The notes beneath the pieces are model-generated. The model did not search any database. It was not told the origin of the DNA and saw only the letters and a program-made list of their open reading frames with translations. Positions 37,867 through 48,421 of a stretch of 64,000 nt of DNA are shown here, piece after piece; position 1 is the stretch's first letter, and every line of letters begins with the position of its first letter. The stretch lies in contig OZ242320.1 of assembly GCA_965208125.1 (NCBI GenBank), positions 960,001 to 1,024,000 on the forward strand. Reading direction: 5' to 3'. Both the position numbers and the translations under genes were made by a program. The DNA comes from Candidatus Latescibacterota bacterium. Lineage in GTDB: Bacteria; Latescibacterota; UBA2968.

Positions 37867-38070
37867 CTAAACCTGCGCCTCCACCATCACCTCAATAGCT
37901 GTCAGATGCGCTGCAACGCGCACATCCATCGGCTGTGCTGTCGGGCTTTCTGACGTCACCAGATGACTCGTATGCCCTCGCTGATACAAAGCAATGGGAA
38001 TACCCTCCCCGTACTTCCGCCTCGACACCTCCATATTGGGATGAATCACCCCATTGACCGCAACATCACC
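37867..38070 (-). pseudogene. Duplicated 3' end of the M14 peptidase gene (direct repeat of 41781-41974)
   Basis: 194 bp with about 15 mismatches by manual alignment; encodes GDVAVNGVIHPNMEVSRRK...EVMVEAQV*. Confidence 0.93.
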
Positions 38071-38617: not shown

Positions 38618-40585
38618 ATGCTGAGATTTGCTGAAGAAATACTGCTGCTGCTTCACAACGAAGATCGAGGCGATTTCGCGTCCGGTCTTGCGCCGCATGC
38701 ATTGAACATCGTCCTCGCTGGTGCCGTATTGATGGATTTGGCCCTTGAAAACCGCATCGATACCGATCTCGATCATCTCTTTTTGGCTGATGCCACGCCT
38801 CTTGAAGACGACCTGCTTGATCCCACCCTTGCCGACATCGCGCGCGATACGGACACACGAGACGCCAACTATTGGCTCGCACAAACGACCAAACGGGGCG
38901 ACGAAATCCGCGATAAAGCACTTGCGCGACTGATCAACCGGGGCATCCTGGAAGCCGAATCCGAAGGGATCTTCTTCCTTTCGCACCTGGTATCGCACTG
39001 CCGCCACTATCCAACCATTGATGGACAACCAGTAGAAGAAGTCCGGTTACGCATTATGCGCGTACTGTTCACCGATGAAATTCCGGACCCACGCGACATC
39101 GTCATTATCTGTCTGGCGGATGCCTGCGGCGTTTTCAAGAATATTTTATCCCAGTCAGAACTATCGGAGGTACAAGAACGGATCGAACTGATTCGAAAAA
39201 TGGACCTGATCGGCCAATCGGTTACCAGAGCGATTCGCAAGCATGAGCCTCCTACCCCTGTCCCTACTCCACGCAAGGAGATACCGCAGGCACCGGGGTT
39301 GCCGCTTATTGGCAACACCATCGGCATGAAGCGCGATTTGCGCTCGCTTCTCGTCAAACAATACCGAAACTTAGGGCCGATTTTTCGCATCAAGGCATTC
39401 AATCGCCGCTTCATCGCCCTCGTAGGTCCCGAGGCGAATACCTTCGTAAAGCGAGGGGGTAAGTACTTTCGCACGCTTGAAAACTGGGTGGATTACAACA
39501 AAGCTGGGGGCGTCGGACGCAACATAATCAGCATGGATGGCCCCGAACATATTCGCATGCGCAAAGAACTGGCGGATGTGTACACCCACCGCCTCATTGA
39601 AGGCCGCGTGGCAGACGTTGTCCGCGTTCTTCAACAAGATATCGCCGGATGGCCCCAGGACAAGCCGCTACCGGGCTTATACACCTGGCAGCGCATCGTC
39701 TTAAATCAGATCGGTGTGCTGGCCCTCAGCATGCCTGTACACGACTACTTAGACGACATTATGGTTTATTTTCACAGCAAGATGAAAACGTATATCATGC
39801 GGCAGCAACCCAGGCTGATGTTATATCGGCCACGCGTCCGGCGTGCCTTCAAGCGGATGGAAGAACTGACTCAGCGCATTCTGGCTGATCACGAACCAGA
39901 AAAACGCCGCAACAAGCCACCGGATACCATTGACCATTTGCTGGAACTGCACCGCAGGGATCCGCAATTTCTTCCCGAGACCGATTTAGAGGTAATAGGT
40001 CCTCTCACGGCCGGTCTCGATACCGTGGCAAATACCTGTGCCTTCATATTCTACGAACTGTTGAAGCGACCCGATCTGCGCGAGCAGGTAATTGCTGAAG
40101 CAGACGCCCTCTTTGACCAGGGTATGCCTGAGGTGAGCGACCTGCGTCAACTCGATGTCCTGCACCGCACGGCAATGGAAACCTTGCGCCTCTATCCCCT
40201 TGCACCGGTAATGTCATTGCGCACGGTAGCCAACTCATTTGAATTTGAGGGCTACAAGGTCTCTGCTGGCGAGACCCTTCTTATTGGATTCACAATACCG
40301 CACCTGATGTCAGAATATTTCCCCAATCCGGAGCGCTTCGATATCGACCGCTACACCGCAGAACGCGCTGAGCACCGCCAGCACGGGGTCTATGCCCCCT
40401 TCGGTTTAGGAGCGCATCGGTGTCTGGGTAGCAATCTCGCCGAGGCGTTCATTGCGCTCAACATGGCGGCCATCTTCCGCGAGGCCGATTTGGTTCTCGA
40501 TCCGCCCGATTGCGAATTAAAGACCAAACAGACCTATTCCCTTCTACCCTACTTCAAGTTCCGCCTGGTGCGTCGGCACCGATAG
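38618..40585 (+). CDS. GPP34/GOLPH3-family domain fused to cytochrome P450
   Basis: N-terminal AEEILLLL...LAGAVLMDLALENRI...D.LLD..L (GPP34 pattern); Pro-rich linker PGLPLIG; P450 motifs AGLDT, ETLR, PERF, FGLGAHRCLG. Confidence 0.88.
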   Translation: MLRFAEEILLLLHNEDRGDFASGLAPHALNIVLAGAVLMDLALENRIDTDLDHLFLADATPLEDDLLDPTLADIARDTDTRDANYWLAQTTKRGDEIRDKALARLINRGILEAESEGIFFLSHLVSHCRHYPTIDGQPVEEVRLRIMRVLFTDEIPDPRDIVIICLADACGVFKNILSQSELSEVQERIELIRKMDLIGQSVTRAIRKHEPPTPVPTPRKEIPQAPGLPLIGNTIGMKRDLRSLLVKQYRNLGPIFRIKAFNRRFIALVGPEANTFVKRGGKYFRTLENWVDYNKAGGVGRNIISMDGPEHIRMRKELADVYTHRLIEGRVADVVRVLQQDIAGWPQDKPLPGLYTWQRIVLNQIGVLALSMPVHDYLDDIMVYFHSKMKTYIMRQQPRLMLYRPRVRRAFKRMEELTQRILADHEPEKRRNKPPDTIDHLLELHRRDPQFLPETDLEVIGPLTAGLDTVANTCAFIFYELLKRPDLREQVIAEADALFDQGMPEVSDLRQLDVLHRTAMETLRLYPLAPVMSLRTVANSFEFEGYKVSAGETLLIGFTIPHLMSEYFPNPERFDIDRYTAERAEHRQHGVYAPFGLGAHRCLGSNLAEAFIALNMAAIFREADLVLDPPDCELKTKQTYSLLPYFKFRLVRRHR

Positions 40586-41758: not shown

Positions 41759-42502
41759 TTAGATGAAATCCCTCGCATTAGCCTCCACCATCACCTCAAC
41801 CGCTGCCAAATGCGCTGCAACGCGCACATCCATCGGCTGTGCTGTCGGGCTTTCTGACGTCACCAGATGCCCTGTATGGCCTCGCTGATACAAAGCGATC
41901 GGTATGCCCTCCCCGTACTTCCGCCTCGACACCTCCATATTGGGATGAATCACCCCATTGACTGCAACCTCGCCCTCAATCTCAGCCTCTTTATTAATCG
42001 GACACACCTGTGCCACCCGCGTCACCATCTTCCGTCCCAGAGATTCTCTGTCCCCAAACATCTCGTACAAATAAAACCCCGCACTCTCCCAATCCTCGTG
42101 CAAATCGATCACACCTGCAAAAACTCGTCCTTCTACAAAACCCTTCAAAATCTCAATCTCGGGCACATCATCGCGCAAAAACGCCCAATTCACATCCACC
42201 TCCTGTGCATTGAGCCGCGCATTGTGAACATAGCTCCACGGGCACAAACACGGAATAACTTCAAAACGCACCCGATCAGCCCAGCGATCCCACTCCCTCT
42301 CTAAAAAAGCCAGCGCGGCCTCTATGCCAGCCGGTTCATCGCCGTGCGTCCCCCCATTGATATACACAACAGGCGCGTCTCCCTTGCCAGCAGACACGCG
42401 CAAAACCGGCAACCCTTCAACCACCCCCAACTCATACACATCAACACCAGACACTGCTTCCACACGCTTGACAACAGCATCGTAATCCCGTTGAACCATC
42501 AC
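41759..42502 (-). CDS. M14 metallopeptidase / succinylglutamate desuccinylase-like
   Basis: GGTHGDEPAG (HxxE), D.N..F, IDLHED. Confidence 0.85.
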   Translation of the reverse strand: MMVQRDYDAVVKRVEAVSGVDVYELGVVEGLPVLRVSAGKGDAPVVYINGGTHGDEPAGIEAALAFLEREWDRWADRVRFEVIPCLCPWSYVHNARLNAQEVDVNWAFLRDDVPEIEILKGFVEGRVFAGVIDLHEDWESAGFYLYEMFGDRESLGRKMVTRVAQVCPINKEAEIEGEVAVNGVIHPNMEVSRRKYGEGIPIALYQRGHTGHLVTSESPTAQPMDVRVAAHLAAVEVMVEANARDFI

Positions 42503-45279: not shown

Positions 45280-45319
45280 CACACCTCCTGGGGTAGTGTC
45301 AGCAGTCACACATAAAGAC

Positions 45320-45348
45320 AGCGGAGAAACTCAGAAAGTTTCTCCGCT
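45320..45348. terminator. Hairpin directly downstream of tRNA-Sec
   Basis: AGCGGAGAAACT-CAGAA-AGTTTCTCCGCT. Confidence 0.6.
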
Positions 45349-45356
45349 ATCAAAAA

Positions 45357-45454
45357 TGGCGGGAATGTGTGGGAATCGAACCCACCAAGCGTGGGGTTAG
45401 CACGCAACAACGGGTTTGAAGCCCGCGGGGGACACCAGTTCCCCATCCACTCCC
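45357..45454 (-). tRNA. selC: tRNA-Sec (anticodon UCA)
   Basis: GGGAGUGG...GGGGAAC-UGGU-GUCCCC long D arm, GCGGG-CUUCAAA-CCCGU anticodon arm, long variable arm, GUGGG-UUCGAUU-CCCAC, G discriminator and CCA; 98 nt; 2 nt after selD. Confidence 0.96.
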
Positions 45455-45456
45455 AA

Positions 45457-46500
45457 TCACGCGCGTACCTCAATTTCACCGGGATGTTCTGCAACCACCT
45501 CGCCAATATCTCGAGCCATCACACCGCGCTCAATGAGTGCCCCAAGAAAAGCATCAGCCACATCGGGCGCAAGTGCAATCAGCAGGCCACCAGAAGTCTG
45601 CGGATCAAAAAACAAACGCCTCAAAGACTCGTCAACATCTTCGGCAAACCGCACCGCATGCCCTCGCGCCGCCCGATTGCGCCGCAAACCACCGCCCTCA
45701 CGCCCCTCTGCAATCTGCAAAGCCAGATCGAAACGCGGCACATCAAGAGCACGTATGCAAAACCCAACGCCACTCGCCTCAGCCATCTCCAACCCATGCC
45801 CCAGCAACCCAAACCCGGTAATATCCGTACATCCACCCGCATTATATGCAACCATCTCCTCGGCTGCGACGCGATTCAACTGCACCATAGAATCCACCGC
45901 AACCTGCAAAGCATCTTCATCGATCTCGTCATTTTGATACGCATCCGACATCAAACCCGTACCCAGCGGCTTGGTCAGAATGAGACGATCACCCACCCGC
46001 GCACCCGCATTGGTCTTCACATCGTCTGGATGCACAACCCCCGTCACAGACAACCCGAACTTGGGCTCCACATCCTCCACAGAATGTCCACCCACCAGAA
46101 CTGCGCCGGACTCCGCCACCTTCTCCTGTCCCCCTCTTAAAACCTCGGCAATCACCTCTGGATCGACATCATCACTCGGAAACCCGCAAATATTCAGCGC
46201 AGTAATCGGGCGCCCTCCCATCGCATACACATCGCTCAGCGAATTGGCTGCCGCAATCTGCCCATACGCATGCGGATCATCGACAATAGGCGTAAAAAAA
46301 TCCACCGTCTGAATAAGCGCCACATCCTCAGAAATCCGAAACACACCGGCATCATCAGCCGTATTCATCCCCACCATCAAATCGGGATGCGCCACAGGCG
46401 GCAACTTTTTCAAAATCACATCCAGCACCGCTGGATCGAGTTTCGATGCTCAACCACCGCAACTGACGAGCTGAGTCAATCTTCTACCGCGATACTTCAT
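45457..46500 (-). CDS. selD: Selenide,water dikinase SelD, selenocysteine-containing (UGA at 46450-46452, codon 17)
   Basis: MKYRGRRLTQLVSCGG-U-ASKLDP...DDAGV, QTVDFFTP, NSLSDVYAMGG, TDITGFGLLGH, DPQTSGGLL; hairpin AUCCAGC-GGU-GCUGGAU after the UGA. Confidence 0.95.
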
Positions 46501-47324
46501 TTTTTCAACTCCTCATCTTCTCTCGCCATCTGTTCCTTTTGCCAGCGATAATCGACCTTGCCATCGTAAAACATCCCGGGGTTCTCTATCGCCCACAACT
46601 GCTTTCGGATTAACCAATTCTTGGGATCCAGAACATACGCGCGCTTTAACTCAGCAATAGCATCTTCGCGCTTGCCCTGTTTCAGCAACACAATAGCGCG
46701 CTGAAATTTCGCATCGGCCTCCTGCTCATCCGCAGTCAGCACGCGGGGTTTCGCACCCTTATCCCCATCGCGCCATGCGCCGGGAATAGCCCCCGTTGTT
46801 ATCCATTCACCCAGTTCTTCGCGCAGCGTCTCATTGTCAATATTAACGCTACCAACACTGCGGACAAGTCGCCCTTCTTCATCCACAAAAATCCCAACCG
46901 GCACGAATTTGACATTATACGCTTTCCCAATCGCGTTATGCTGATCCAGCAATGCGCGATATGTACCACCGGCCTTTTCAACCCAGGGTCTGGCAACCTC
47001 GGCACCCTGGGCATCCTGGGCAATAACCACCACCTCAACCTGTTCACCATACTCCTGATAAAACGCTTGCCATCCAGGCAACTGAGCGCGGCACCCTCAC
47101 CAGGAAGCCCACATAAAAAACGCCGTTTTCTTACCGAGAAAATCACTCGAAGAAATCAGTTCCCCAGAGTATAAATCCGGCAGTATAAACGCAGGCGGCA
47201 CATGCCCAATGCTCAGGCCAACATCATTCAGTCCAGGCTCCAAAGTCTTCACAGATTCCTCCCCTGACAGGGTATGAGCCGACCCATTTATCAACAAGAG
47301 CAACACAAATACTATTTTTTTCAT
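46497..47324 (-). CDS. Exported thioredoxin-fold (AhpC/TSA-TlpA-like) selenoprotein with U-G-C motif and C-terminal TPR-like helices, 275 aa
   Basis: Track ORFs 47097-47324 and 46497-47081 are in frame across TGA 47097-47099: FFMWASW-U-GCRAQLPGWQ; SECIS-like hairpin UUGCC-UGGAU-GGCAA; stop overlaps the selD start. Confidence 0.88.
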
Positions 47325-47461: not shown

Positions 47462-48421
47462 CTAACCGTACAGATGCGCCACATAATCGCCATACCCATT
47501 GTACATTCGGGTCGGCACGCGATCCATCGTCCCGATCAACCGCTCCGTTGCCTGAGACCAGCGCGGATGTGGCACATTGGGATTTACATTAGACCAAAAA
47601 TCGTACTCTGAAGGAGCCACCTTGTTCCAGAACGTCGGCGGTTGCCGTTTCGTGAACTCGATCTTTACAATGGACTTAATACTCTTATACCCGTATTTCC
47701 ACGGCGTCACCAACCGAATGGGTGCCCCGTGCTGTTTGGGCAACGCATGACCGTAAATACCCGTCGTGAGCAACGTCAGTTCATTCGTCGCCTCTTCCAT
47801 AGTCAGCCCCTCAAAATAAGGCCACGGATACCAGGACTGCGTCTTCATGCCCGGTGCCTGATCCGGACGATTGAACGTCACCATCCGCACGTACTTTGCC
47901 GACGACTTGGGCTGCACATAATCGATCAACGCCTTCATCGGAAACCCCGTCCACGGCACCGTCATCGCCCATGCCTCCACGCACCGAAACCGATACACGC
48001 GCTCTTCCAGTGCGAACCGCTTGAGCAAATCATCCAGGTCATACGTCCCGGCCTTCTCCACATAACCCGAAATCTCGATCTCCCAGGGACGCACCTCAAA
48101 CTTATCCGTCAACTCGTGGACCTTGCCCTTATTCGTAGTAAACTCGTAAAAATTATTGTATCGTGCGGCGACCTTCTCCCGCGTCAATTCCCGCTCAACC
48201 GTGTACGCTTCATTCCGCTTTGCCGGATACAAACCCGGCAGCGATGGGGGAACTTCCACCTCAAACTCATCTTCTGCTGTCGCGCAGCCCGCGCCAATCA
48301 CCGCACTCGCGCCCGCAACACCTATAGCCTGCATAAAGCGCCGCCGATTCAGGTAAATATGTTCGGGCGTAACCTCGCCTTCGGGCAACTGCCAGCCTTT
48401 GGGAATATGGATAAAAGCCAT
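47462..48421 (-). CDS. msrP: Protein-methionine-sulfoxide reductase catalytic subunit MsrP
   Basis: Tat motif NRRRFM, YNNFYEF, YRFRCVEAW, HGAPIRL, WKYGYKSIKSI, PHPRWSQA.ER. Confidence 0.96.
   Translation of the reverse strand: MAFIHIPKGWQLPEGEVTPEHIYLNRRRFMQAIGVAGASAVIGAGCATAEDEFEVEVPPSLPGLYPAKRNEAYTVERELTREKVAARYNNFYEFTTNKGKVHELTDKFEVRPWEIEISGYVEKAGTYDLDDLLKRFALEERVYRFRCVEAWAMTVPWTGFPMKALIDYVQPKSSAKYVRMVTFNRPDQAPGMKTQSWYPWPYFEGLTMEEATNELTLLTTGIYGHALPKQHGAPIRLVTPWKYGYKSIKSIVKIEFTKRQPPTFWNKVAPSEYDFWSNVNPNVPHPRWSQATERLIGTMDRVPTRMYNGYGDYVAHLYG

Follow-up and report, generated by a model that had tools for sequence, protein, structure and literature searches.

A probable Sec-recoded TlpA/ResA-fold oxidoreductase of the UGC family, with two predicted translation starts, from a Candidatus Latescibacterota genome

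The gene that overlaps selD in a genome of Candidatus Latescibacterota (GenBank assembly GCA_965208125.1) probably encodes a selenocysteine-recoded oxidoreductase of the UGC family with TlpA/ResA fold, which would repair or reshuffle oxidised protein thiols and would be made from two starts as an exported and a cytoplasmic form. The gene, referred to below as the redoxin gene, lies on the minus strand of a 64,000-nucleotide stretch of contig OZ242320.1 (positions 960,001 to 1,024,000), here called the window, whose numbering is used unless another contig is named.

The in-frame UGA and its hairpin

46497..47324, minus strand: coding sequence of a UGC-type TlpA/ResA-like selenoprotein (P0001), 275 aa, from translation, profile searches and predicted structure
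47097..47099, minus strand: in-frame TGA, predicted Sec76, from translation, conserved in orthologues
47091..47093, minus strand: Cys78, predicted resolving Cys and the sole Cys of the protein, from translation and alignment
47066..47082, minus strand: SECIS upper stem-loop, UUGCC-UGGAU-GGCAA (47081-47067), from the synonymous-site test and covariation

With TGA translated as U, a single 275-codon frame runs from 47324 to 46497 with one internal TGA, and it is across this codon (47099-47097) that a 75-aa and a 194-aa entry of the open-reading-frame list fuse in frame. The preliminary description had joined the two as WASW-U-GC, which the 275-aa translation bears out, the surroundings of the codon reading FFMWASW-U76-G-C78-RAQLPGWQ. 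Forty-five full-length orthologues, 47-100% identical, are present in 44 of 168 Latescibacterota genomes, and each of the 45 contains exactly one TGA; three partial matches occur besides these among the 168 genomes, two of them with other stops. The site reads WASW-U-GC in 42 copies, WASW-U-RC in two and WASR-U-GC in one, and the database records of relatives at 86-94% identity are those of Candidatus Latescibacterota. The variant motifs belong to loci L060 (genome G070), L063 (G105) and L064 (G097), and the G070 copy, located between selB and selC, may be in decay.

The hairpin downstream of the TGA has a loop of 5 nt, U-GG-A-U, that begins 20 nt past the UGA. Its folding energy does not stand out from that of shuffled sequences (z -0.05 and -0.28) and was dropped as SECIS evidence, so that the support rests on covariation, and because the peptide L-P-G-W-Q fixes much of the hairpin, synonymous sites were tested, using 45 loci (42 genome copies and three metagenome loci, with the three motif variants omitted) that comprise 35 distinct 48-mers. 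The 5-bp Watson-Crick stem is kept in 35/35 of these, against 0.265 expected from random synonymous redraws of the peptide. Within the stem the Leu and Gln codons co-vary (CTG/CAG in 27, TTG/CAA in 8), and the Pro and Gly codons pair at their third positions as T-A, C-G or A-T, with one exception. In an alignment of 33 of these 35 sequences, pairing holds in 98.7% of cells and 23 cells are compensatory, a level reached by 0/500 shuffles, with slid controls attaining at most 77% paired and 4 compensatory cells; the sequences are related, so that the figures do not amount to a probability, and 4 of the 7 hairpin pairs never vary. According to the accessible portion of PMC13188914, bacterial SECIS elements follow the model N1-G-[G/U]-N2 with an N1-N2 pair, and that of PMC4605307 places their conserved G ~20 nt downstream; the loop UGGAU, with its covarying N1-N2 pair, matches the model. 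The hairpin proposed in the preliminary description thus stands as far as the upper stem is concerned, but its lower CGC/GCG stem was rejected, the pairing not being kept in relatives. SelB would bind this hairpin 20 nt after the UGA, whereupon Sec76 would be inserted.

Taken together, the one TGA in every orthologue, the covarying SECIS-type hairpin and the Sec machinery of the genome make it almost certain, on comparative grounds, that the codon is recoded to selenocysteine, as had been proposed. If the TGA were a genuine stop, the locus would represent two fragments or a pseudogene, and it is true that databases hold pieces only, namely a 70-aa N-terminal piece annotated as ‘hypothetical’ and a ‘TPR protein’ of 162-195 aa, the range of all 120 listed of the 191 homologues, which cover 56-71% of the query. 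These lengths arise because gene prediction takes the TGA as a stop and truncates the protein there, an annotation to be corrected. A single TGA kept at the catalytic position down to 47% identity, a SECIS that covaries and full Sec machinery in the same genome leave the stop reading vanishingly improbable. In four metatranscriptomes, contigs of close relatives span both the UGA and the junction of the redoxin gene with selD, and a single one connects msrP to the redoxin gene; such contigs are unable to show transcription, strand or level and were not counted as evidence.

Homologues with Cys aligned to the UGA, suggested earlier as a check on the assignment, exist among protein records: the 65 of the best 150 cluster representatives that span the active site comprise 11 with W-x-x-W-C-G-C, 12 with other C-x-C, 5 with one Cys, 8 without Cys, 28 ordinary C-x-x-C proteins and 1 out of frame, the Cys being read from the protein records and, for the closest (P0125), from Logan/ENA gene calls. 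A DNA-verified Cys homologue was sought in plasmids, with no match at 1e-12. Full-length members of the wider family free of Cys (P0145, P0172, P0208, P0165, P0166, P0261, P0245 and P0271; e.g. W-S-G-S, W-D-V-S) suggest non-redox paralogues, such that the scaffold could have a non-redox role as well and part of the UGC family may operate without redox chemistry.

Fold, chemistry and family

46794..47210, minus strand: TlpA/ResA-type thioredoxin domain, about aa 39-177, with invariant V141-P142, from Pfam, alignment, AlphaFold and fold match
46500..46733, minus strand: helical TPR-like tail, aa 198-275, with invariant D-P-x-N-W-x-x-R-K-Q-x-W-A, from Pfam, alignment and AlphaFold

The thioredoxin fold and the TPR-like C-terminus of the preliminary description were both recovered. 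PF00578 (AhpC-TSA) matches aa 39-154 with 51.8 bits against a cut-off of 26, and in an AlphaFold model built on 30 sequences (pLDDT 89.5) residues 1-31 are disordered, U76 opens a helix spanning residues 77-92 and the tail is helical from residue 198, forming helical hairpins. The top fold matches are ResA and its kin (Foldseek E 2e-10, rmsd 2.8 over 141 columns), and the top sequence neighbours are StoA, pneumococcal Etrx and ResA. With ResA, StoA and TlpA (PDB 2h1b, 1st9, 3erw) the redoxin shares the fold, the WxxW before the nucleophile, the position of the cis-Pro loop and an N-terminal leader, whereas its C-x-x-C is shortened to U-x-C, a TPR-like tail is added, and no cytochrome c maturation context was seen. 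The tail contains one TPR-like repeat (aa 203-236), which stays below the Pfam cut-off of PF07719 (TPR_2; 23.5 vs 27 bits); PF07719 is present in many of the database fragments, and the conservation of the tail equals that of the active site.

In the bacilliredoxins BrxA and BrxB, the CGC site consists of an attacking Cys54 and a resolving Cys56, as stated in the accessible part of PMC5444506, and the redoxin resembles them in this C-G-C spacing, with attacking and resolving residues two apart. They form a separate family; the kinship put forward earlier was rejected, a PF06491 match being absent from both the protein and the genome and the fold matching ResA. Judged by its sequence and predicted fold, the redoxin is likely a thiol-disulfide oxidoreductase. 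Sec76, positioned N-terminally on the active-site helix in the place of the attacking Cys of TlpA, would attack a client disulfide or an oxidised Cys, and Cys78 would resolve the mixed bond to give a small strained Se-S ring, by analogy with Cys56 and Cys54 of the Brx CGC site. Reduction of this ring would fall to a DsbD-type membrane protein if the redoxin is outside the cytoplasm (one DsbD_TM gene is present in the genome) or to the thioredoxin system if it is inside, and the conserved TPR-like tail would pick the protein clients. A selenol peroxidase in place of a protein-disulfide enzyme is what the name given to the family in 2008, ‘Prx-like’, implies, and AhpC-TSA and Redoxin are indeed the best Pfam matches. 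With no T/S-x-x-C or Prx active-site pattern, with neighbours in sequence and fold that are StoA, ResA, Etrx and DsbE, and with a conserved tail suggestive of protein clients, a peroxidase appears improbable.

The gene had been presented as a hidden selenoprotein; as a family it is already on record. In the accessible portions of the sources, ‘Prx-like (UGC-containing)’ appears in Table 2 of PMC2398784 (2008) with 46 selenoproteins and 855 Cys homologues, and under this name or as UGC-TlpA it is listed as predicted in the reviews PMC9312934 and PMC13188914; MBL6689828.1 and MDE0950781.1 are its listed type sequences. Dataset S1 of PMC2398784, to the extent available, contains the W-[AS]-S-W-U-G-C site with a tail that is TPR-like by eye, and signal-like N-termini occur there on other Trx-fold selenoproteins. 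By PF00578, the U-G-C site and by-eye likeness to the 2008 sequences, the redoxin is a member of this known family, sharing also the (L)PGWQ-like residues and, by eye, the helical TPR-like tail. It differs from the 2008 sequences in that accessible portion by the Latescibacterota tail motif and by the genus leader, which is fused to the catalytic domain with no stalk and with a second start. Among NCBIfam models the closest is NF041054 (WAxxUGC_long, ResA-like, 354 positions), matched at E 5e-41 over profile positions 85-205; positions 1-84, an N-terminal C-x4-C domain, have no counterpart in the redoxin. The cut-off of this model, 300 bits, is exceeded by P0160 (514.6 bits) and reached neither by the redoxin (141 bits) nor by its stalk-bearing relatives (118-169 bits), with 0/168 genomes of the phylum passing, and the Latescibacterota proteins are therefore a sister subfamily and not members of that equivalog.

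Ahead of the catalytic domain, most relatives outside the genus possess an extra stalk domain of ~100 residues with a C-x4-C motif (up to x7), which matches the front of NF041054 and resembles the N-terminal domain of copper amine oxidase (over the cut-off in one of five tested). The 16 copies of the genus constitute a clade (100/99) and all lack the stalk, as do several other lineages; a stalk remnant was sought throughout the own genome by tblastn and HMM, including the region after selB, and none was found. Because the own-genus redoxin has only U76 and C78, the stalk cysteines are no obligatory relay, and its 251-aa core, stalkless and with one Sec/Cys pair, makes it the simplest member in which to study the function of a U-x-C site. 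The UGC family has been predicted since 2008, with no tested function in the accessible portions of the literature. No paper linking a WAxxUGC or UGC motif with selenoproteins was found, searches for Latescibacterota selenoproteins gave none naming the phylum among the matches listed, and UGC is not mentioned in the available part of bioRxiv 10.1101/2022.07.06.499078.

Leader and predicted second start

47253..47324, minus strand: signal-peptide-like leader M1-S24, with a basic n-region, ~10 hydrophobic residues and no canonical AxA, disordered in the model
47250..47262, minus strand: internal Shine-Dalgarno GGAGG (47262-47258), 5-nt spacer and GTG V25 (47252-47250), a predicted second start

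Export by a signal peptide, as originally proposed, is plausible in that a signal-like leader is conserved: 16/16 genus copies retain its frame and hydrophobic character, at lengths of 72, 75, 78 or 81 nt, a mark of coding constraint; the proposal is qualified by the better ribosome-binding site of an internal start that bypasses this leader. On a crude duplex score, which acidic codons that follow a cleavage site can raise by mimicking GGAGG, M1 is weak (-3.1 kcal/mol) and V25 attains -10.5 kcal/mol. The product predicted from V25 would be leaderless, with 251 aa, and would keep the whole catalytic domain. A GTG or ATG occupies the second start in 16/16 genus copies, which are close kin, and outscores the upstream start in 15 of them; the upstream start scores better in the remaining one (L011) and in two of ten long relatives (L025, L027). 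In 11/11 relatives with both leader and stalk (leaders assigned by eye, two of them doubtful) an ATG falls on the first stalk residue, and nine leaderless stalk-bearing relatives begin at the same position as the internal start. Among 408 signal-peptide-like long ORFs genome-wide, taken as a control, 6 have a comparable internal start.

The simplest reading of the two starts is that an old leaderless start was retained after a leader had been added. That both are used, giving an exported and a cytoplasmic form, is suggested by the sequence with something just short of an even chance. Somewhat more tentative is the fuller proposal that the weak upstream start supplies a periplasmic Sec redoxin and the strong internal start a cytoplasmic one, that this arrangement has been kept across Latescibacterota genera and has survived the loss of the stalk, and that the sel operon scales both pools. 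The same selenoenzyme might instead work in one location only, either with the leader always used and V25 a relic, or with V25 dominant and the protein cytoplasmic. In keeping with this, the upstream score is weak (23% of signal-like genes are equally weak) and many relatives are leaderless; the leader is nonetheless under coding constraint, leader and internal start are both retained in several genera, the latter having outlived the deletion of the domain it formerly began, which makes a single location unlikely. For two forms of one protein there are precedents outside selenoproteins: N-terminal proteoforms in bacteria are reviewed in PMC13515050, and in HBP35 of P. gingivalis internal in-frame starts give surface and cytoplasmic forms, as shown by Met mutants (PMC2907840), in the accessible portions of both papers. 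HBP35, unlike the redoxin, is no selenoprotein, and its internal starts lie >100 residues in. The literature searched yielded no earlier description of the stalk deletion or of the conserved second start, and no case of a bacterial selenoprotein that the choice of translation start directs to two locations, which the redoxin would be if both starts are used.

Ahead of the gene, 16 nt of the start region recur as a direct repeat (47392-47320, minus strand, copies 57 nt apart), creating a 19-codon mini-ORF (47380-47321, minus strand) whose stop overlaps the redoxin ATG; its frame is not kept in the genus, and it was set aside as the outcome of a tandem duplication affecting the start region. A palindromic hairpin is located just upstream of this repeat, at about 47435-47408.

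Gene neighbourhood

45457..46500, minus strand: selD, with its own in-frame TGA (U17, CGG-U, 46452-46450) and a hairpin at 46436-46420, from profile match and translation
45357..45454, minus strand: tRNA-Sec (selC), anticodon TCA, found 2 bases past selD
45317..45351, minus strand: 16-bp terminator-like hairpin after selC, of a kind found at chance frequency in the region
47462..48421, minus strand: msrP, with Tat signal, 137 bases upstream of the redoxin gene, a neighbour in the own genus only

The redoxin stop TGA (46499-46497) and the selD ATG at 46500 share bases (ATGA), an overlap found in 16/16 genus copies, and with selC next in line the arrangement is as first described. The cut-off of TIGR00476 is exceeded by selD (371 vs 125 bits) only if the gene is read from ATG 46500 through its TGA, and its hairpin is more stable than shuffles (z -3.2, 45 nt after the TGA); plain ORF calling puts the selD start at 46428, 24 codons late. 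At one locus (L009, genome G086) the redoxin gene is preceded by a degenerate second copy of the selD 5' end that takes in the CGG-TGA region. A genome without selA and selB had been named as an argument against selenocysteine; both genes are present above their cut-offs elsewhere in the own genome (C1:61052-64314), and selA is found in 42 of the 44 carrier genomes, the two misses being fragmented assemblies of 430 and 820 contigs. Promoter and terminator scans of the region returned counts at chance level.

A sel gene adjoins 27 of the 45 copies, selD standing beside 20 of them and 7 lying between selB and selC without selD; the other 18 have no sel gene in the available flanks (0.2-5 kb). 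At the 18 loci examined away from the main sel-linked set, no conserved partner beyond small clades was found. Families f1 and f2 have the arrangement selA-selB-gene-(selD)-selC; in the own genus selAB has been relocated and msrP lies upstream of the redoxin gene. Five near-complete genomes of the genus without the redoxin gene keep selA: msrP abuts selD in G085 and G087, unrelated DNA fills the gap in G091, msrP is elsewhere in a fourth, and the fifth gave no selD match. No full-length copy is present in 89 of 131 selA-positive genomes, and because of these genomes and the five of the genus the redoxin is dispensable for Sec synthesis. The preliminary description had considered that the protein might deliver selenium to SelD, for which the ATGA overlap throughout the genus and the frequent proximity of sel genes could be adduced. 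Given that selD adjoins fewer than half of the copies, that G085, G087 and G091 retain selA without the redoxin, that most selA-positive genomes do without it, and that the leader would part the redoxin from cytoplasmic SelD, this role is very improbable. The location in the sel cluster would rather be that of a selenium consumer co-expressed with its decoding genes, and not of a step in Sec synthesis.

MsrP is a molybdenum enzyme that is supplied with electrons via heme b and is not known to accept them from thiols. A search of the own genome for the MsrQ family (PF01794) gave no match, and together with the position of msrP upstream in the genus it could be argued that the exported redoxin donates electrons to the adjacent periplasmic MsrP. 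The heme route of MsrP counts against such a donor, the linkage is limited to one genus, and three close relatives retain msrP-selD-selC after loss of the redoxin gene; the idea is even less probable than delivery to SelD, and a redoxin acting on protein thiols is the reading preferred here.

Two tandem genes beyond selC (45309-44386 and 44366-43467, minus strand) have signal-like N-termini and a weak likeness to S1/P1 nuclease or Zn-phospholipase C (E 0.09); the first follows selC in many f1/f2 relatives and is thus a conserved member of the sel cluster. In the own genome (G000) a pair that is HicB/HicA-like by eye lies right after selB, at C1 about 60960-60520 (minus strand), the position where relatives have the redoxin gene, and it marks the rearrangement that split the sel cluster. 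A genome scan for Sec codons gave 52 hits, among them YW-U-PHC and YN-U-GTC redoxins (G000 C1: 5058587, minus strand, and 1038881, plus strand), a deiodinase-like FT-U-PPF (640817, plus), a UGSC protein (1753143, plus), YP-U-PAD (1446258, plus) and HG-U-GHN (3459152, plus). Elsewhere in the window, the 3' end of a hydrolase-like gene (41759-42502, minus strand) is repeated near-identically at about 37870-38050 (minus strand), a local duplication, and a 655-aa ORF (38618-40585, plus strand) presumably combines, by eye, a GPP34-like N-terminal part with a cytochrome P450 domain.
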